Of a stretch of DNA of 64,000 nt, positions 28,376-37,806 are shown piece after piece. Where the stretch lies: contig CAZGHP010000001.1 of NCBI GenBank assembly GCA_964525455.1, positions 74,739-138,738 of the forward strand, in the 5' to 3' direction. Source of the DNA: an uncultured Candidatus Saccharibacteria bacterium (GTDB lineage Bacteria; Patescibacteriota; SICC01). The notes beneath the pieces are model-generated. The model was not told the DNA's origin. It saw only the letters and a list, made by a program, of their open reading frames with translations, and ran no database searches. A program made the position numbers and the translations under genes. Each line of letters opens with the position of its first letter. Position 1 is the stretch's first letter.

Positions 28376-28533
28376 GGCTTAGGCGGTGTCCGGTTCCGGC
28401 AAAATTGTGTTATTAAAGCATATTTTTGCGGTTTTGTCAACGAGTCGAAGCGTTATATTGCAGAAATGTATCTTGCAAAAATACCCTTGTTAAGGTATTC
28501 TCTTATGCTTTGGAACATAAGCGCGGATAGTAT

Positions 28534-29571
28534 ATGGGATCAAGCACACACAGCGCCGAAAGAACCGGTACCCCGGAAGAGCAGAGTCGTCGCCTGGAGG
28601 CTCTCCACGCGCGTCGGGAGGAATGTTTATCCGAGCCTCTCCATTATGGGCAGCGTAGTCGCAACGCGCAGCTTCGTAAGATCGCGCTGGAAGCGTCGGA
28701 GCTTGATCGCGATTTTGCCATCGAGACGGCACTGACTATCGGTACCACTCCCTCCCGGGTAAGGGCCCTTGGCGAACTCGGGGAACGGCTTGGCGGCGAC
28801 GCGGTGATATTCCAAGTGGCTAATGAAGTTTCCAAGGAGGGCGGCATGTTTTATCAAGGCAGGGAGAAGGCCATTGGGGAGCTGGTCAGCACTATAGCCC
28901 GATTTTACCCACGTTATGCGACGGAGGTTGTGCATGATTCATGTCAAGAATGGGAGAAAGAACGTGCGCTTTGGAGAGTAGTGGAGGCGAGCGGTGACCT
29001 CGAGGCTGCTCAAGAACTGCGGCCGCTTCTCTTGGAAGGAGATGCTTGGGAGCGGCGGCACTTGAAAGATTTGGTCGAGTCGACTGCCGAAGCGCACCCT
29101 GAATTCGCCGCGGAAACGATACAGCTGATGGGAGACGGCGAAGACAAGGATCTCGCCAGGGAAGCGCTGGAACAGGCGAAGGCACGCCGGCAAGCATCGG
29201 AACCTTCCCCGACTCCCGCTCCCGACAAAACCTTTCCGCGCCTGAGTAGGTCGGAGCTCGGGCAATTGATTTGGCAGGCGAAGGAGCTGGAACAGGGCAC
29301 CTATCCTGCTTCCGCTACCGAAGCGGAATCCGTACCCGGTTCCATCATCGATACGGAATCCTTTTCGCGACTGAGCGAGAGCACCGCCCAACTGTATGTG
29401 GAAAGCCTCGTGCGGATTGGTGAGGAATTGCATGACTCCGCCGTGCTAGCAGAAGCGGCGTACCTAGCCGCACAGCTCGAAGAGGGCGAAACGAAAGACG
29501 GACTGCTGCTGCGGATTATCAAGACGGCGGATCCGGACACGCTCCGCAGCGCCATACAGCGACAGCGGTAA
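28534..29571 (+). CDS. hypothetical helical protein (345 aa)
   Basis: ORF after AT-rich divergent intergenic region. Confidence 0.45.
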   Translation: MGSSTHSAERTGTPEEQSRRLEALHARREECLSEPLHYGQRSRNAQLRKIALEASELDRDFAIETALTIGTTPSRVRALGELGERLGGDAVIFQVANEVSKEGGMFYQGREKAIGELVSTIARFYPRYATEVVHDSCQEWEKERALWRVVEASGDLEAAQELRPLLLEGDAWERRHLKDLVESTAEAHPEFAAETIQLMGDGEDKDLAREALEQAKARRQASEPSPTPAPDKTFPRLSRSELGQLIWQAKELEQGTYPASATEAESVPGSIIDTESFSRLSESTAQLYVESLVRIGEELHDSAVLAEAAYLAAQLEEGETKDGLLLRIIKTADPDTLRSAIQRQR

Positions 29572-29646: not shown

Positions 29647-30396
29647 GTGTATCACACCGCCCGAATAATCCTATTCGCCGTCGTCTTGGCAGTCGCACTA
29701 CCGGCTTGGCCCACCCGTGCCGCCGCCGCGGAGGTCGTCCTCCCCGTCGAACGCTATTTCGAGCGGCAGACGCTCAAGGGATTCGACGTGCTGGTGGATC
29801 GGGCGTATCACGAACGCCACCGCGACCTCTTTCCGCACAACGGCTTCCGCAATCAATTCACGGGCATCCATGCCGGCGCGGACGTAGAGTTCGGTTCGGC
29901 GGCGGACGGCCGCCGTGACGTTCCCGTGAAAGCCGTAGCGGACGGCGAGATCATCTATGTCGGTGACGTACCCGGCTACGGCGGGCTGGTGATCGTCCGC
30001 CACCATGGGCCGGAGACGGTCACCTCGCTCTACGGCCACGTCCGGCTGCGCGACGCTCCGGTCCGGTCCGGCCAGCGGGTCGCGGCCGGCCAGACGATCG
30101 CGCTCCTAGGGAAGGGCTTTTCCGCCGAGACCAGCGGGGCACGCAAGCATCTGCACTTCGGTATCCATAAAGGTCCGGCGCTCGACGTCGCCGGCCACGA
30201 GCAGACGCGTGAGCGGCTGCTGGCCGAATGGTACAATCCGAACGACTGGCTGGTCCGGCACGGCGCCGCTCCGTCCCCGCGGCCGGCCGCGATTCCGGCG
30301 CCGAGCCCGTCACCCGAACCGGCCGTCGTGCCGGATACACCCAAAGAAACATGGTTCACCCGACTGATCGCCTGGTTCCGCGACTTCACCGCATAG
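29647..30396 (+). CDS. M23 family metallopeptidase (LytM-like) with signal peptide
   Basis: HAGADVEF...VVADGEIIYVG...GYGGLVIVRHHG...LYGHV...HLHFGIHKG M23 signature. Confidence 0.8.
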   Translation: MYHTARIILFAVVLAVALPAWPTRAAAAEVVLPVERYFERQTLKGFDVLVDRAYHERHRDLFPHNGFRNQFTGIHAGADVEFGSAADGRRDVPVKAVADGEIIYVGDVPGYGGLVIVRHHGPETVTSLYGHVRLRDAPVRSGQRVAAGQTIALLGKGFSAETSGARKHLHFGIHKGPALDVAGHEQTRERLLAEWYNPNDWLVRHGAAPSPRPAAIPAPSPSPEPAVVPDTPKETWFTRLIAWFRDFTA

Positions 30397-31411: not shown

Positions 31412-31483
31412 GGCCCTATCGTCTAGTGGTTAGGACGCCAGGTTTTCATCCTGGAAACCGGGGTTCGATTCCCCGTAGGGCCG
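31412..31483 (+). tRNA. tRNA-Glu (anticodon TTC)
   Basis: Acceptor GGCCCTA/TAGGGCC, anticodon stem CCAGG/CCTGG loop TTTTCAT, T-arm CGGGG-TTCGATT-CCCCG. Confidence 0.85.
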
Positions 31484-31568
31484 CGAGGAACCTCTGGAAA
31501 TTGACCCCGCCCCACCCGAGGCGGTACCGTTAATCCCGTATGCACTGCTGTATGTACCGGGGGCGCCG

Positions 31569-32261
31569 ATGATCAAGATGGTGCACGTCAAGAAAGCGTA
31601 CCCGAAAGGGAATGTCGCGCTGGAAGACGTCAATCTGTCCATCAACCCCAACGAGTTCGTCTCGCTGGTGGGGGCTTCGGGTGCCGGCAAGAGCACGTTG
31701 GTGCGGATGCTGATCGCCGAGGAACGGCCGACGGAGGGTAAGATATTCGTCAACGACCGCGATATCTCGCATCTTTCGCACAAGCAGGTGCCGTTCTACC
31801 GCCGGAAGATCGGCGTGGTGTTCCAGGATTTCAAGCTGCTCGACCACAAGACCGTTTCCGAGAACGTGGCGTTCGCGATGGAGGTTTCCGGCATGAAGAG
31901 CATCGAGATCAAGAAAAGCGTCCCGAAGATCCTGAAGATGGTCGGGCTCTTGGAGAAAGCCGACCGGTTCCCGCACCAGCTCTCCGGCGGGGAGATCCAG
32001 CGGACGGCGATCGCCCGGGCGCTGGTGCACCAGCCGAAGCTCCTGATCGCCGACGAACCGACCGGCAACCTCGATCCCGTGAACGCGTGGGAGATCATCC
32101 AGCTCCTGCTCAAGATCAACCAGTTCGGGACCACTGTGATCCTCGCGACACACAACCGCGAGGTGGTGGATGCGCTCAAGAAACGCGTACTCACGCTTGA
32201 GGACGGCCAGGTCGTCCGCGACCAGAAGGTCGGCAAATACGCGCTGAGGAAGGAAAAATGA
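31569..32261 (+). CDS. ftsE: cell division ATP-binding protein FtsE
   Basis: Walker A GASGAGKST, LSGGEIQRTAIARA, LLIADEPTGNLD. Confidence 0.85.
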   Translation: MIKMVHVKKAYPKGNVALEDVNLSINPNEFVSLVGASGAGKSTLVRMLIAEERPTEGKIFVNDRDISHLSHKQVPFYRRKIGVVFQDFKLLDHKTVSENVAFAMEVSGMKSIEIKKSVPKILKMVGLLEKADRFPHQLSGGEIQRTAIARALVHQPKLLIADEPTGNLDPVNAWEIIQLLLKINQFGTTVILATHNREVVDALKKRVLTLEDGQVVRDQKVGKYALRKEK

Positions 32262-33175
32262 GCCTGCTCGTCACCGGCCCGCGGCTGTTCAAGTCCGCAT
32301 TCACCAGCTTCTACCGGAACGGCTGGCTCTCCGTGGCCGCCACCGGCATCGTCACGTTCTCGCTGGTGCTGGTCTCGATCTTCGCGCTGCTGCTGCTGCT
32401 TGGCACCAACGTGATCACCGCGATCCAGGAGAAGATCGACGTCGAGGTGTTCTTCAACGACGACGCCAAGGTGGCCGACATCCTCACGCTGAAGGAACAG
32501 GTGGAGAAGCACCCGAACGCGGGACGGGTCACCTACGTCTCGAAAGCGCAGGCGCTGGAGATATACAAAGGCCAGTCGGAACGCAACCAGCGCCTGGTCG
32601 AGCAGATCTCCGAGGAAGACAACCCGCTGCCGGCCAGTATCCAGATCAAGGCCCAGGATCCGGATGATCTCGATGCGTTCAACCCGGTGCTGGAATCGGA
32701 CTTCGCGGAGCCGCTGATCGCCAGCCGCTCCGACAAAGAGAACAGAGAAATTATTCAGCGCCTGCAGCGGATCGTGAGCTTCATCCGGAGCGTCGGCCTG
32801 TTCATTTCCCTCGTGGTACTCACGTTCGCGGTGCTCGTGGTGTTCAACACCATCCGGATCGCGATCTTCTCGCGGCGCGAGGAAATCGAGATCATGCGGC
32901 TGGTGGGCGCGTCCAATGCGTATATTCGCGGGCCGTTCGTGCTCGAAGGGGCGCTCTACGGCCTGGTCGGAACCCTGATCGCGCTGCTCGTGGTCTACTT
33001 GATCGTCCTGGCGTTCGGCCCGGCGCTTTCGAGCTACCTGCGCGACATCAACGAAGACGTGCCTGCCTATTTCCGCGCGAACCTGCCGCTGATCGTGGCG
33101 ATCCAACTGGCGACGGGTATCGGCGTGGGCGTGTTCTCCAGCTATATCGCGATCCGGCGCCACCTGCGCGCCTAG
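32258..33175 (+). CDS. ftsX: cell division permease FtsX
   Basis: ATGA overlap with ftsE; 4-TM FtsX topology with large extracellular loop. Confidence 0.8.
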   Translation: MSLLVTGPRLFKSAFTSFYRNGWLSVAATGIVTFSLVLVSIFALLLLLGTNVITAIQEKIDVEVFFNDDAKVADILTLKEQVEKHPNAGRVTYVSKAQALEIYKGQSERNQRLVEQISEEDNPLPASIQIKAQDPDDLDAFNPVLESDFAEPLIASRSDKENREIIQRLQRIVSFIRSVGLFISLVVLTFAVLVVFNTIRIAIFSRREEIEIMRLVGASNAYIRGPFVLEGALYGLVGTLIALLVVYLIVLAFGPALSSYLRDINEDVPAYFRANLPLIVAIQLATGIGVGVFSSYIAIRRHLRA

Positions 33176-33313
33176 GCACGGCTCAGGCGTGGATATGGTC
33201 GCGCTTGACAAGCCAGGATGGGGCCAGCGAGGCCGCCCGCAGTGTGGACGGGCCGCCCGGGAATGACTTCGTGATTTTATAAAACACTCTCCGTTAAGCA
33301 AAAAACATGCTTT

Positions 33314-33341
33314 TTGACAGGCGCTGGAGACTCCCTATAAT
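33314..33341 (+). promoter_or_regulatory. consensus sigma70-type promoter TTGACA-16nt-TATAAT
   Basis: TTGACA 33314-33319, TATAAT 33336-33341, upstream of PcsB-like gene. Confidence 0.5.
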
Positions 33342-33386
33342 AACTCCCGTTATCCAGAAAACACCCCACGCGGAATCCTACACAGA

Positions 33387-34352
33387 ATGAGCATCCGATC
33401 ACGACGCACCCTTACGGCTTTTGTTGCTGCCACGACGCTGGTGGCGGGAATCGTCACCGTCGCGCCGACTCCCGGCTACGCCGAAGAGTCCGACACCAGG
33501 GATTCGACGATCGCGAAGATCGACGCGAATCTCAACTCCCTGAATACGCAGGCCGAAGAGCTCGGCGGGCAGGTCACGGGTCTGAATGCCGAGATCGGCG
33601 AGCTTGAGGCGGAGTACCAGAAGCTCGTTCCGGAAAAGGAGCGCAAGCAGGCGCTGCTCAACGAGACGATCAAGGAATCGTATGTTACCGGCGACGAAAG
33701 CGCGGTCGAGGTGCTTGCCTCCGAGGCGACATTCTCCGAAGTCGTCAGTAAGCAGCATTACCATGAGGAGATCCAAGTAAAGACGGATCGGGCCGCGCAG
33801 GAACTTGAAGAAATAACGCAGCAGATCGAAGAGAAGCTGGGAGCGGCCAAGGAGAAGCGTCAGGGACTGCTCACGCTGAAGGGCCAGCTCGATGAGCGTA
33901 TCGCCACTGCCGAGGCTCAGGAAGAGGCCAAGCGGGCTGCGGAAGCGCTCTCCGAGGAGCAGTTCCAGCAGGCGCAGGAAGCCAATACGCAAACGCAGGC
34001 CGAGGGTATCGCCCAATCCAGCCCCAGCAGCAGCCCGGGCAGCGGCTCCCCGCAGCAGATTTCCGGGGGCAACAACCCGTATCCGTGGGGTCAGTGCACC
34101 TGGTATGTCTATCAGGCGACCGGCCGTGGGCAGAACGGCAACGCCGGATCCTGGGGCGGCGGCTCCAGCGGCGGCCCCGGCTCCATCCTGATCATGCCTC
34201 CGGGTGTCAATGGGGCAGGTTCTGCCGGGCATGTCGGAGTGGTCGTCAGTGTCAGCGGGAGCGGTGTCACCATCCGCGATTCGAACTGGTTCGGTCTCGG
34301 GGTAATCAGCACCCACACCGTACCCAAGAGTTCTTCCTACCGTTACTTCTGA
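33387..34352 (+). CDS. PcsB-like secreted peptidoglycan hydrolase: N-terminal coiled coil + C-terminal CHAP domain
   Basis: Signal peptide, long coiled coil (LNAEIGELEAEYQKL...), C-terminal NPYPWGQCTWYV...GHVGVV CHAP Cys/His; immediately after ftsEX. Confidence 0.7.
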   Translation: MSIRSRRTLTAFVAATTLVAGIVTVAPTPGYAEESDTRDSTIAKIDANLNSLNTQAEELGGQVTGLNAEIGELEAEYQKLVPEKERKQALLNETIKESYVTGDESAVEVLASEATFSEVVSKQHYHEEIQVKTDRAAQELEEITQQIEEKLGAAKEKRQGLLTLKGQLDERIATAEAQEEAKRAAEALSEEQFQQAQEANTQTQAEGIAQSSPSSSPGSGSPQQISGGNNPYPWGQCTWYVYQATGRGQNGNAGSWGGGSSGGPGSILIMPPGVNGAGSAGHVGVVVSVSGSGVTIRDSNWFGLGVISTHTVPKSSSYRYF

Positions 34353-34457
34353 TATCCCTCTTGCGTCCTTGAACGCCCCTATACGGGGGCGTTTTTGCAT
34401 GCCGCTGTGCGTTTCATGCGTAAGAAGAGGGTTATTTTTCCTTTATTGACTAAAAAT

Positions 34458-34485
34458 TTGACTAAACGGGACAAGTCCGTATAAT
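34458..34485 (+). promoter_or_regulatory. sigma70-type promoter TTGACT-16nt-TATAAT
   Basis: TTGACT 34458-34463, TATAAT 34480-34485; RBS AAAGGAAGG before ATG 34527. Confidence 0.45.
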
Positions 34486-34526
34486 TCCGCAGGTTGTAGC
34501 AAAAAAGGAAGGATTTTCCCAAAGCC

Positions 34527-35066
34527 ATGAGAAAAAACAGCTCCGGCTTTTTTATTTTGTCTCGAATTCGTTTTTTGGCCGCTTTGGCGGTCCTGGTCTT
34601 GGGTGTGCTCGCGGCCCAGTTTCATCCGGGTCACAGCCTGGGCGCCCAGAGCGCCCCGCTGGCGCACGGTTCCCAGGCAGACGTGCTCAAGCTGATACAA
34701 GCGGAGCGCTCCCTCGTAGCCACCCCTGAGCCCTCGCCGCCACCGGCTGCGCCCGAGTCGCGTGCGGCGAAGAAAGCGCCTCAGAAGGCTCCTATACGCC
34801 CTGAGCTGGTAGGCACGGCCGGCTACGCCGTGGCAGGCGGTAACTGCGTGGCTGAGCCCGGTATCAACAACCCCGGCTATGGGAACCCGTCCGACTGGCC
34901 GGTGACCTCACAGGTGCCCCGGGTCGGCGCCACGGCGGTGTTCACCTGGAACCACGTAGGCGTCGTGACCGGTATCTGGCGGAACGGCGACATCGAGGTC
35001 CGGCACCAGAACTACTGGGGCGGGCAGCACCGCTTCCCGCGCAGCATGATCCGCGGGTTCCGCTGA
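34527..35066 (+). CDS. secreted CHAP-domain peptidase
   Basis: Signal peptide; GGNCVAEP ... NHVGVVTG CHAP Cys/His motifs. Confidence 0.6.
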   Translation: MRKNSSGFFILSRIRFLAALAVLVLGVLAAQFHPGHSLGAQSAPLAHGSQADVLKLIQAERSLVATPEPSPPPAAPESRAAKKAPQKAPIRPELVGTAGYAVAGGNCVAEPGINNPGYGNPSDWPVTSQVPRVGATAVFTWNHVGVVTGIWRNGDIEVRHQNYWGGQHRFPRSMIRGFR

Positions 35067-35072
35067 CACTCG

Positions 35073-36278
35073 TCATCCGGGCGTTTCCCGCTGCAGCCGC
35101 AGGTCCTGCCCGAACGCGATCGCGTCGTTCGCCACGCCCTCGCTGCCGAGCATGCCGGCCGGGATCACCGTGAACTCGCCCCAGCGGTCGTTCGCCCGGT
35201 CCACGCCCTCCGACAGGCGCGTACGCCGCCGGACGGGGTCGAACAGCGAAGGCTGCTCCGGATCGGCCGCACGCAGGGCATGGGTGGTCACGGCGAGCTT
35301 GCGGAGCGGCGCTGTCGGTGGTTCGGCCGTGAGCAGTCGCCAGGCATGGGCGAAGAGGTCGTGGTGCCGGTCGGTCGGGGTGAGACGGGCGCCAGCCGTC
35401 CAGCGGTCCCACTCCGCGGTCGGGCCGGATATCGTGAGCGCCCCGGCGCGCCAGCCGTCCCGGCGGAGCCGTCGGGCGACCCGGTGGCAGAGCTTGTGTA
35501 ACAGCGGCTTCAGCCGCGCCGGGTCCGCGGTCGCTCGCGGCAGCACGGAGGAGTGGCCGAGCGTCTTCGTCCCCCAGTCCTGGCGGTCGATCGCATAGCC
35601 GTGCACCCGGAGGTGCCAGTAGTAACCGACGATGCCGAGCCGTCGCTTGAGCTCCCAGGGCGGGAGGTCGTACAGGTCGAGCGGCGAGGCGACACCGGCC
35701 AGTTGGAACCGCGCGGCCAGCCGGTGCGCGATACCGCAGAGATCGGTCAGCTTGAGCTCGTCGAGCACCGCCCGGAGGTTCTCGTGGGTGATCTCGAAGA
35801 GGCCGTCGGGCTTCCGGAAGTCGGACGCCGTCTTCGCGAGCAGCCAGTTCGGGCCGATACCCACGGAGGACGAGAGCCACTCGCCGACCTCGCGCCGGAT
35901 CCGGCGCTTGATCTCGGCGCCGATCTCACGGGCACGCATGGCTTCCGCGGGCTCCAGCCAGAGCGCGACCTCGTCCACCGAGCGTGGTTTCAGTTCGCCG
36001 CGATAGTCGTTCATGATCTTCCGGAACCGGCGGTGCACCGTCCGGTACCGCTGCGGTCGCGGCGGCAGGATCGTGATCTCCGGGATCAGCCGCCGGGCCT
36101 CGCCGACCTTGGTGCCGGTCTTCACGCCGTACCGCTTCGCCTCGATGGAGGCGGCGACGATCGTCCCGCCCGGCGAATCCACCGGGGCGACACCCACCGG
36201 CCGGCCGCGCAGCGACGGCCAGGCCTGCTGCTCGACCGTCGCGAAGAACGAGTCCATGTCGAGATGGAGGACGGTCAT
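35073..36278 (-). CDS. dinB: DNA polymerase IV (Y-family)
   Basis: MTVLHLDMDSFFATVEQ N-terminus; ATG at 36278 (RBS GGGGGA) within longer stop-free ORF 35073..36671. Confidence 0.85.
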   Translation of the reverse strand: MTVLHLDMDSFFATVEQQAWPSLRGRPVGVAPVDSPGGTIVAASIEAKRYGVKTGTKVGEARRLIPEITILPPRPQRYRTVHRRFRKIMNDYRGELKPRSVDEVALWLEPAEAMRAREIGAEIKRRIRREVGEWLSSSVGIGPNWLLAKTASDFRKPDGLFEITHENLRAVLDELKLTDLCGIAHRLAARFQLAGVASPLDLYDLPPWELKRRLGIVGYYWHLRVHGYAIDRQDWGTKTLGHSSVLPRATADPARLKPLLHKLCHRVARRLRRDGWRAGALTISGPTAEWDRWTAGARLTPTDRHHDLFAHAWRLLTAEPPTAPLRKLAVTTHALRAADPEQPSLFDPVRRRTRLSEGVDRANDRWGEFTVIPAGMLGSEGVANDAIAFGQDLRLQRETPG

Positions 36279-36286
36279 CGTTCCCC

Positions 36287-36541
36287 CTACGCCACCCCGA
36301 AGCCGACTTCCTCCAGCGTCCAGGACAGTCGTTGCTGAGAATAGGACAGTACGCAGTCGCCGGCATCGGTGGTGACGGCGTAGTAGTGGAGCGTGTCGGT
36401 GCCTTTCGGCTCGGCGTGGTGGAGGTTCAGCTTCTGGATCCAGTAACGGCGTCCTTGCCAGCGCAGTAGCACGGGCAGCGCCCGGCCGCCTTCGAACTTG
36501 GCCAGCACGGTCACGCGTTCCTGTAGTTCGGTTCCACCCAT
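36287..36541 (-). CDS. small hypothetical protein (84 aa) co-transcribed upstream of dinB
   Basis: Ends 9 nt before dinB start; preceded by palindrome. Confidence 0.4.
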   Translation of the reverse strand: MGGTELQERVTVLAKFEGGRALPVLLRWQGRRYWIQKLNLHHAEPKGTDTLHYYAVTTDAGDCVLSYSQQRLSWTLEEVGFGVA

Positions 36542-36585: not shown

Positions 36586-37806
36586 GTGAGCGAAGAGGCG
36601 CCTGATCCCTCCGGTGGCGCCCCGTTTTTCCGGTACAATGGCTCCGTGCCGGAAAAGAAACGCCGTTTCAAAGGAAATCACCGCAAGATCCTGCTCGCCG
36701 TAGCGGCGGGAATCCTGGTCTACGCGCTTGGGTTCTACGCCGGCAAATACGGTATCCCGCCCCGGCAATACGCGGCGGGCGACACCGGCCGGCTCGCCGA
36801 TTACACCGAGTTCTATGAGGCCAAGCAATTGGTCGAGGACCGCTACGTCGGGAACGTCGACGCCCAGAAGTTGATAGACGCGGCGACCGACGGCCTGGTG
36901 AACGGCCTGGACGATCCGTACAGCGATTACCTTACCGCGCCGGAGGTGCGGGAGCTTGAGGATTCGCTCTCCGGGGAGCTTGAGGGTATCGGTATCGAGA
37001 TCGGCGTGCGTGACGAACAGGCCGTGGTGATCGCCCCGCTGCCGGACTCGCCGGCGGAACGCGCCGGCATCAAGGCCGGGGACCGCGTGGTCGCGGTCGG
37101 GGACCGGCCGACGGTCGGCCTGACGGTCGACGAAGTCGCCGACCGGATCCGCGGTACGGCCGGCACCGAGGTACGGGTCACGGTGCAGACGCCCGGGCAG
37201 CGGCCGCGGGAGCTCACCATCACGCGGGAGAAGTTGAAGGCCCCGTCGGTCAGCGTCCGGTTCGAGGGCGCCGTGGCCGTGCTGGAAATCTCCCGCTTCG
37301 GCGATGAGACCACGGCGGACCTCAAGCGGGCGGCGGATCGGATCCTGGCCCGCGACCCGCGGGGCATCGTACTGGACTTGCGGGGCAACCCGGGCGGTTT
37401 CCTTGATGGCGCGGTGGATGCCGCCTCCGTGTTCCTCAAGGACGGCGTGGTGGTCAAGGAACGCTTCAAGGACAAGACCGAGGAACGTTCCGTCTCGAAC
37501 GACGGCCGCTTGGCCGGTATCCCGGTGGTCGTGCTGACGAACGAGGGGACCGCCAGTGCCGCGGAAATCCTCGCCGGGGCGCTCCGCGACAACCGTGACG
37601 TCAGGCTGGTCGGCGAACAGACGTTCGGCAAGGGTTCGGTGCAGGACCTGATCGGCCTGGAAGACGGCGCGGTCCTCAAGCTCACCATCGCCGAGTGGCT
37701 GACACCGAACGGCCAGTCGCTTTCGAAACACGGCCTTAAACCGGATATCACCGTGTCCTCCAAGGACCCGGCCGCCCAGCTCCGCCGGGCGATTGAGGCG
37801 CTGTAG
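36586..37806 (+). CDS. C-terminal processing peptidase (S41, Ctp/Prc-like) with PDZ domain
   Basis: PDZ GIGIEIG..VVIAPLPDSPAERAGIKAGDRVVAV; LDLRGNPGG S41 motif; start uncertain (GTG 36586 or GTG 36643). Confidence 0.8.
   Translation: MSEEAPDPSGGAPFFRYNGSVPEKKRRFKGNHRKILLAVAAGILVYALGFYAGKYGIPPRQYAAGDTGRLADYTEFYEAKQLVEDRYVGNVDAQKLIDAATDGLVNGLDDPYSDYLTAPEVRELEDSLSGELEGIGIEIGVRDEQAVVIAPLPDSPAERAGIKAGDRVVAVGDRPTVGLTVDEVADRIRGTAGTEVRVTVQTPGQRPRELTITREKLKAPSVSVRFEGAVAVLEISRFGDETTADLKRAADRILARDPRGIVLDLRGNPGGFLDGAVDAASVFLKDGVVVKERFKDKTEERSVSNDGRLAGIPVVVLTNEGTASAAEILAGALRDNRDVRLVGEQTFGKGSVQDLIGLEDGAVLKLTIAEWLTPNGQSLSKHGLKPDITVSSKDPAAQLRRAIEAL

Follow-up and report, generated by a model that had tools for sequence, protein, structure and literature searches.

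Gene content of the locus

The locus described here lies in a 64-kilobase (kb) stretch of DNA (the window; 62% G+C) from a high-G+C Saccharimonadia bacterium within the candidate phyla radiation (CPR), and it carries the division genes ftsE and ftsX followed by a gene for a coiled-coil CHAP hydrolase and a second, shorter gene. CPR bacteria are ultrasmall and mostly uncultured, and the building of their envelope and their division are poorly understood. FtsE and FtsX have been merely listed among Saccharimonadia proteins (PMC12592800), and our literature searches returned no paper in which a CHAP-domain protein is connected with Saccharibacteria and none linking Patescibacteria with a PcsB-like partner of FtsEX. 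A first-pass annotation of the window had placed ftsE, ftsX, the coiled-coil CHAP gene and the short gene one after another, and all four are present in the list of open reading frames (ORFs) where it located them. They are co-directional, the last two being 321 and 179 codons long. Collected in Table 1 are the features of the locus, with short distances given in nucleotides (nt). Loci used for comparison are labelled L001-L018, of which L015-L018 belong to other CPR lineages outside the close clade of the window.

Table 1 Features of the ftsEX locus, with neighbouring peptidase genes in the last two rows (positions are those of the window)
Feature	Position	Strand	Basis
ftsE, FtsEX ATPase, 230 residues	31569..32261	+	NCBIfam TIGR02673; Pfam ABC_tran 2.5e-38
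ftsX, membrane subunit, 305 residues	32258..33175	+	Pfam FtsX_ECD, FtsX; 4-nt overlap with ftsE
Distal TTGACAA box	33205..33211	+	Invariant in 7 aligned intergenic regions, columns 30-36
A/T-rich region with conserved TAAGCA and T-run	33275..33313	+	Sequence; conserved alignment columns
Hydrolase promoter, TTGACA-16-TATAAT, 12/12	33314..33341	+	Read from sequence; scan
PcsB-like hydrolase, 321 residues	33387..34352	+	Pfam CHAP; 36-sequence alignment; AlphaFold2; Foldseek; PDB profile
Intrinsic terminator, G+C-rich hairpin and TTTTT	34371..34397	+	RNA fold
Short CHAP gene promoter, TTGACT-16-TATAAT, 11/12	34458..34485	+	Read from sequence; scan
Putative minimal CHAP protein, 179 residues	34527..35066	+	Pfam CHAP 23.9 bits
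Secreted or anchored M23 peptidase, HxxxD and HxH, no coiled coil	29647..30396	+	Pfam Peptidase_M23 9.1e-17
S41 C-terminal processing protease, PDZ and S41	36586..37806	+	Pfam Peptidase_S41 7.4e-49; NCBIfam prc 301.7 bits

The identity of the two division genes is clear. FtsE scores 286.1 bits against the cut-off of 264.85 of the NCBIfam equivalog model TIGR02673, which places it in that family. FtsX is recognized above cut-off by the Pfam models FtsX_ECD (PF18075; 4.1e-19, 69.4 bits, residues 61-142) and FtsX (PF02687; 5.8e-17, 62.3 bits), its hydropathy profile has four hydrophobic segments and a large extracellular domain at about residues 58-168, and its PDB sequence matches are FtsX chains in solved FtsEX complexes. 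It scores below all of the NCBIfam lineage models (FtsX_Gpos, 222.1 against 225; FtsX_Gneg, 203.2 against 255; FtsX_actino, 145.5 against 250), and the narrow shortfall for FtsX_Gpos is to be expected since the CPR lineage lies outside the training of these models. A clade of about 46 clusters has an FtsX at least 60% identical to that of the window, after which identity drops to 45% or less. FtsX is far better conserved than its presumed partner, the hydrolase.

A PcsB-like hydrolase downstream of ftsX

The hydrolase is composed of a predicted signal peptide (about residues 1-32), a coiled-coil hairpin (38-209), a linker rich in Ser, Pro and Gly (210-227) and a C-terminal CHAP domain (228-321), and the CHAP match, signal-peptide-like N-terminus and predicted coiled coil on which the first-pass annotation was to stand or fall are all found. 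The N-terminus (MSIRSRR), hydrophobic residues 7-29 and a following GYA/EE are signal-peptide-like by heuristic. The coiled-coil region, which spans some 170 residues, has a high content of Glu, Ala, Gln and Leu and contains one Pro, is modelled by AlphaFold2 on a 36-member alignment as helices 38-100, 116-187 and 190-209, after which comes a beta-rich CHAP domain; the mean predicted local distance difference test score (pLDDT) is 79.7 and reaches about 90 in the helices. The CHAP domain scores 46.8 bits with Pfam PF05257 (residues 229-300), well above the cut-off of 26. The product is thus predicted to have the layout of the FtsEX-regulated hydrolases and activators of the PcsB, EnvC, CwlO and RipC class, in which a peptidoglycan-hydrolase-type domain follows a long antiparallel coiled coil on an exported protein. 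Across the 36 sequences 21 columns are invariant, among them Cys237, His282 and Asn300 of the CHAP domain, and mean identity to the window protein is 42% in the coiled coil versus 63% in the CHAP domain. With its intact CHAP triad, the protein presumably acts as the enzyme, like PcsB, and not as an activator of the EnvC type; EnvC is itself inactive and activates amidases. The coiled-coil part of the family profile also weakly matches (E 3.6e-4) PDB entry 7o97_A, a solved hypothetical protein of 93 residues from Candidatus Giovannonibacteria, another CPR lineage, a match that may reflect coiled-coil composition alone.

The likeness to PcsB is specific rather than generic. PcsB (PDB 4cgk) is the best PDB sequence match, both for the single protein (E 3.8e-7) and for the family profile (E 3.3e-13), and the alignment covers both the coiled coil and the CHAP domain. 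Foldseek ranks PcsB first; next come two EnvC structures, one from the FtsEX-EnvC complex of V. cholerae and one in which EnvC binds the periplasmic domain of FtsX, with RipC of the M. tuberculosis FtsEX/RipC complex and Cg1735 among the lower matches; the template modelling scores are low (0.2-0.4), as expected where long flexible coiled coils are superposed. In addition, a Lactococcus termiticola protein carrying Pfam CC_PcsB and CHAP shares 48% identity with the window protein over the CHAP domain. The window hydrolase shares with S. pneumoniae PcsB the signal peptide, the multi-helix coiled coil, the flexible linker and the C-terminal CHAP domain with its Cys-His pair, and FtsE and FtsX are present in the window as they are in the FtsEX-PcsB system. 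It differs in being shorter (321 versus 392 residues) and only about 20% identical overall, in that its gene lies directly after ftsX and in that the host is a CPR bacterium and not a member of the Lactobacillales.

Other known FtsEX partners resemble the window protein in architecture and differ in the catalytic domain. Many other bacteria fill the slot after ftsX with an EnvC-like M23 protein. The FtsEX-EnvC systems of E. coli and V. cholerae (6tpi, 8tzl), together with L015 and L016, have a coiled-coil partner in the ftsX-proximal slot and an S41 gene nearby, as here, but their partners are LytM/M23 proteins whereas the window protein is a CHAP protein with an intact triad. RipC (8idc), Cg1735 and CwlO of B. 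subtilis likewise combine a coiled coil with a papain-like cysteine peptidase gated by FtsX, though they carry NlpC/P60 in place of CHAP. CwlO requires the cofactors SweCD (PMC6705773), and nothing comparable is seen at the window locus.

Conservation of gene order across CPR genomes

The order ftsE-ftsX-coiled-coil CHAP gene is kept in every related locus examined, with hydrolase identities of only 45-61%. In the clade as a whole the order is ftsE-ftsX-hydrolase-dinB(-)-small ORF(-)-S41 protease-L9, and the short CHAP gene, where present, lies between the coiled-coil hydrolase gene and dinB. In other CPR genomes, whose FtsX is 39-43% identical to that of the window, the order is prfB-ftsE-ftsX-partner-S41-L9. 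For example, L017 has a single CC_PcsB+CHAP protein in the slot after ftsX, and this protein is homologous over its full length to the window hydrolase family (hhalign, 99.2%). In L015 and L016, the first gene after ftsX encodes a CC_PcsB coiled coil with a weak Peptidase_C39_2-like region or an unrecognized C-terminal domain (L015 5960-7195, L016 6039-7232), and the next gene encodes CC_PcsB with M23. One FtsEX would therefore have two coiled-coil partners in these lineages.

The first-pass annotation had likened this gene order to the streptococcal FtsEX-PcsB and mycobacterial FtsX-RipC modules. The likeness of the module itself stands, given the PDB sequence and fold matches, but the comparison of gene order is loose. 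To our knowledge, pcsB is not linked to ftsEX in S. pneumoniae, ripC is not adjacent to ftsEX in M. tuberculosis, and in the model organisms the genes for RipC, Cg1735 and CwlO likewise lie apart from ftsEX; the window order is therefore not that of streptococci or mycobacteria. What it mirrors is the linked ftsE-ftsX-coiled-coil partner-S41 cluster of other CPR genomes. The window is one version of this CPR-wide cluster, whose coiled coil and promoter are retained while its catalytic head changes from locus to locus.

Consensus promoters of the hydrolase genes

Each of the two hydrolase genes has its own promoter. The TTGACA-16-TATAAT element reported upstream of the coiled-coil gene is confirmed by reading and by scanning, at 12 of 12 positions; it predicts a transcription start near 33348 and a leader of about 39 nt. 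Its asserted rarity in a high-G+C genome also holds, in that the pattern TTGACN-N16-18-TATAAT occurs only twice in the window against 0.01 expected, and none of 100 shuffles contained two or more matches. The first promoter, with the same hexamers and 16-nt spacer, is found in L001, L003, L005, L007, L008, L009, L011, L012, L013 and L014, although the orthologous hydrolases are only 45-61% identical to the window protein. Orthologues of the second, TTGACA-16-TATAAT or TATACT, are found in L001, L003, L007, L008, L009, L011 and L012; the second promoter accompanies the second gene wherever that gene is found, and its leader of 41-42 nt is conserved. Besides these two, no gene-strand promoter match of at least 11/12 occurs in the fetched loci of 8-13 kb. 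Even in distant CPR loci a consensus promoter lies just after ftsX (TTGACA-18-TATAAT in L015 and L016, TTGACA-16-TAAAAT in L017). Since both promoters recur at orthologous positions in related loci, they are not chance matches.

The hydrolase gene is also followed by a G+C-rich hairpin terminator (-20.7 kcal/mol; z -4.07 against shuffles). With its own promoter and terminator it is a separate and probably highly expressed transcription unit, promoter strength being estimated here from the match to consensus. Such a promoter is in keeping with regulation of the protein rather than of its transcription, and recalls the abundance of PcsB-family proteins, of which Usp45 is an example, in culture supernatants.

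Alignment of the intergenic regions reveals further conserved elements. Four blocks show no variation, namely TTTTGACA, CCCTATAAT, the distal TTGACAA and a TAAGCA that precedes the -35 hexamer by about 20 nt. The A/T-rich region that holds TAAGCA is possibly an UP element. The TTGACAA box lies about 100 nt upstream of the hydrolase promoter and is the same in L001, L003, L005, L007, L008 and L011. By inspection of the window, L001 and L005 no -10-like hexamer lies at 16-18 nt from it, and a second sigma-70 promoter was rejected; the box may instead bind a regulator or serve a different sigma factor as its -35 element.

Several other candidates in these regions were considered. A DnaA-box-like TTATCCACA lies beside the distal TTGACAA in L001, L011 and L005, and a similar TTATCCAGA lies at window positions 33350-33358, at the predicted transcription start. 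These were dropped because matches with at most one mismatch occur in the window at chance frequency (5 observed, 5.04 expected) and L003 and L007 do not conserve the motif. In streptococci pcsB is under WalRK control, and no WalR-type TGTWAH-N5-TGTWAH repeats are visible in the aligned regions upstream of the promoter. A riboswitch or other known RNA in the leaders was also rejected: Rfam at gathering thresholds returned seven tRNAs and nothing else over the whole window, and the leaders of 39-42 nt and the spacer between ftsX and the promoter fold like shuffled sequences (z 0.47-0.74).

The start of the cluster looks different. A tRNA-Glu(UUC) gene (31412-31484) ends 84 nt upstream of ftsE, and the sole promoter-like element noticed in the gap is a weak TTGACC-18-TACCGT, in contrast to the consensus promoters of the hydrolase genes. 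ftsEX may therefore be transcribed by read-through from the tRNA gene or be weakly expressed.

A family of putative minimal CHAP domains

The short gene encodes an N-terminal hydrophobic helix (residues 6-35), which is a signal peptide or a membrane anchor, a Pro-rich linker and a C-terminal domain of about 88 residues. The first-pass annotation had called it a second CHAP peptidase with a TTGACT-16-TATAAT promoter. The promoter is present, and the Pfam assignment does not follow, as the protein scores 23.9 bits, below the PF05257 cut-off of 26, and none of its 48 homologues has a precomputed CHAP match. The domain is nevertheless well defined. It is almost invariant among the 48 homologues (GYAxAGGNCVNEPGVNNPGYGNP...NHxGVVTGIW.NGD.EVRHQN...RFPRS), and AlphaFold2 models it with pLDDT above 90. 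A search with its profile against 1.84 billion representatives found only 95 clusters, most of them proteins of 140-260 residues, some with LysM and four at 327-346 residues.

The short protein might be no enzyme at all, its domain being a degenerate CHAP-like module that serves as a regulator, an inhibitor or a structural protein of the wall. Its score below the Pfam threshold would suit this, as would the lack of a significant Foldseek match to its model and the truncation of the helix that normally bears the catalytic Cys (GGNCVNEPG rather than GQCTWYV). Yet Cys107, His143 and Asn162 are invariant in all 48 sequences, and the His/Asn half of the domain matches the canonical CHAP domain of the hydrolase in hhalign (95%), which sets these two residues, His and Asn, against their catalytic counterparts. 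In L013, moreover, the sole gene after ftsX, under the same promoter, is the family coiled coil fused to a minimal CHAP domain, and the coiled coil of the FtsX slot there bears no other catalytic domain; were this one inactive, the module would have no enzyme. We consider a non-enzymatic role unlikely.

Domain fusions tie the minimal CHAP to the same pathway. In L009, three genes stand in a row after the promoter: coiled-coil+minimal-CHAP, coiled-coil+canonical-CHAP and finally a free-standing minimal-CHAP gene with its own promoter. The coiled-coil fusions of L009 and L013 connect the short gene to the pathway of the hydrolase, and because the domain occurs both with LysM and on coiled coils after ftsX, it is linked to peptidoglycan as well as to the FtsEX slot. 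The family represents a small gap in current domain libraries.

A probable FtsEX-gated hydrolase and its alternatives

Taken together, the module is probably an FtsEX-gated cell-division wall hydrolase of a single-membrane Saccharimonadia bacterium. This reading builds on the gene identities, the domain architecture, the intact catalytic residues and the conserved synteny and promoters described above. In the literature model, the coiled coil of PcsB binds the helical lobe of extracellular loop 1 of FtsX (PMC6355983), and the established FtsEX model also appears in PMC7668044. By analogy, FtsE, the cytoplasmic ATPase, and FtsX, with its four helices and large extracellular domain, would form an ATP-binding cassette (ABC)-type mechanotransmitter. 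The hydrolase would be made from its own strong sigma-70-type consensus promoter, on a transcript ending at its own terminator, and secreted by the Sec pathway, and its coiled coil would then dock on the FtsX extracellular domain as in the PcsB, EnvC, CwlO and RipC systems. Cycles of the FtsE ATPase would move that extracellular domain, and through this activation by FtsX, which we infer by analogy, ATP hydrolysis would free the CHAP domain from a presumed auto-inhibition so that its putative peptidoglycan bond is cut at the division site only. The second gene would supply a membrane-anchored or secreted minimal CHAP in the same pathway. The nearby S41 protease may trim or turn over the hydrolases, which would give it a functional link to the module.

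Some observations weigh against this reading. The window hydrolase has no match to Pfam CC_PcsB (PF24568) at E<0.01 and scores 64.4 bits against the cut-off of 450 of the NCBIfam PcsB equivalog NF046104; it is therefore PcsB-like without being a PcsB orthologue in the strict sense. In L018 ftsX is followed by no partner gene, which means that the linkage of ftsX and partner is not obligatory, and the separate promoter of the hydrolase gene gives no ground for assuming joint regulation with ftsEX. The organism, finally, is represented by metagenome assemblies only, and the hydrolase homologues too always come from metagenome-assembled genomes (Patescibacteria group, Candidatus Saccharimonadia and uncultured Candidatus Saccharibacteria).

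A role for the short protein other than as an enzyme was weighed above, and all three rival explanations fit the conserved coiled coil and the linkage to ftsX less well than a hydrolase gated by FtsEX does. In the second, the hydrolase is a housekeeping autolysin independent of FtsEX, its coiled coil serving for dimerization or for binding to wall or membrane and its adjacency to ftsX being one of neighbourhood. The separate promoter and terminator and the partnerless L018 are in keeping with this, as are the gap between ftsX and the hydrolase gene (211 nt in the window and up to 670 nt in L014) and the fast evolution of the coiled coil relative to the CHAP domain. The PDB-matched proteins of the same architecture (PcsB, EnvC and RipC) are FtsEX partners in the literature, however, and the linkage to ftsX persists where FtsX identity is only about 40%, with the catalytic domain exchanged (M23, CHAP, minimal CHAP) and the coiled coil kept. 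An independent autolysin is very unlikely.

The third rival, and the least probable, would have both CHAP proteins released in quantity from strong promoters to attack the wall of a host bacterium, as weapons or for feeding, with their place beside ftsEX a matter of history. Cultured Saccharibacteria are epibiotic parasites (PMC8080830), both proteins have predicted export signals, each gene has an independent and very strong-looking promoter, and the second protein lacks a coiled coil, with LysM in some relatives; against this, the FtsX-partner coiled coil is retained under selection (the invariant columns noted above), coiled-coil hydrolases fill the slot after ftsX across CPR lineages, the fold matches are division hydrolases and FtsEX partners, and no secretion-system, pilus or toxin genes are adjacent. 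An origin from a prophage endolysin can be dismissed, for the neighbours are housekeeping genes in conserved synteny with no phage genes among them, and the window proteins differ from phage endolysin CHAP proteins (LysGH15, LysIME-EF1, PlyGRCS) both in this chromosomal context and in the shorter minimal domain with its discrete family of clusters.

An FtsEX-gated hydrolase in this position would also allow a broader view, which we regard as possible rather than probable. The slot after ftsX in CPR genomes could be a cassette site in which an FtsX-docking coiled coil, always under a near-perfect consensus promoter, would receive interchangeable catalytic heads, namely M23, C39-like, canonical CHAP and the lineage-restricted minimal CHAP of about 88 residues that domain models miss. 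If so, the second gene would be a free-standing minimal head in the same FtsEX pathway, perhaps cutting another bond, and the distal TTGACAA box would join the invariant promoters in a single conserved unit of regulation. The emerging genetics of Saccharibacteria could then also use these promoters as strong, portable ones.

The likely FtsEX-gated hydrolase is a concrete candidate for the last step of division in CPR organisms. Existing ideas are not overturned; rather, a well-known system is extended to a new lineage, in that the logic of FtsEX and a coiled-coil partner reaches the CPR with swapped catalytic domains. Two modest additions are promoters conserved base for base over deep divergence and a minimal-CHAP family, narrow in distribution, whose domain takes turns with canonical CHAP on one type of coiled coil. 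The perfectly conserved promoters are, in themselves, practical candidates for expression tools in Saccharibacteria.

Neighbouring genes

The S41 protease is syntenic in L001, L003, L005 and L013-L018. The M23 peptidase gene upstream is a neighbour in the closest relatives alone, being present in L001 and L003 and absent from L005 and L014, and it is probably no part of the FtsEX module. As an EnvC-like partner it was rejected, since it lacks a coiled coil, keeps its HxxxD and HxH catalytic motifs and is missing from those two loci.

Between the hydrolase genes and the S41 protease lies a pair of genes on the reverse strand that is found in this clade and not in other CPR. The first in transcription is a conserved 84-residue ORF (36287-36541, -) with no Pfam match, which may be a polymerase accessory factor; it precedes a dinB-like gene for a Y-family polymerase (35073-36281, -), whose start is probably the MTVLHLDMDSFF methionine, giving 402 residues. 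Further upstream, a 345-residue ORF (28534-29571, +) without a Pfam match, its product high in Glu, Ala and Leu, occupies the place of the phosphoketolase-M23 intergenic region of relatives; this ORF may be spurious or confined to the lineage. The only other promoter match of at least 11/12 in the window, TTGACA-17-TTTAAT at 28412-28440 (-), points at a gene that is a phosphoketolase (XFP) in L001 and L003.

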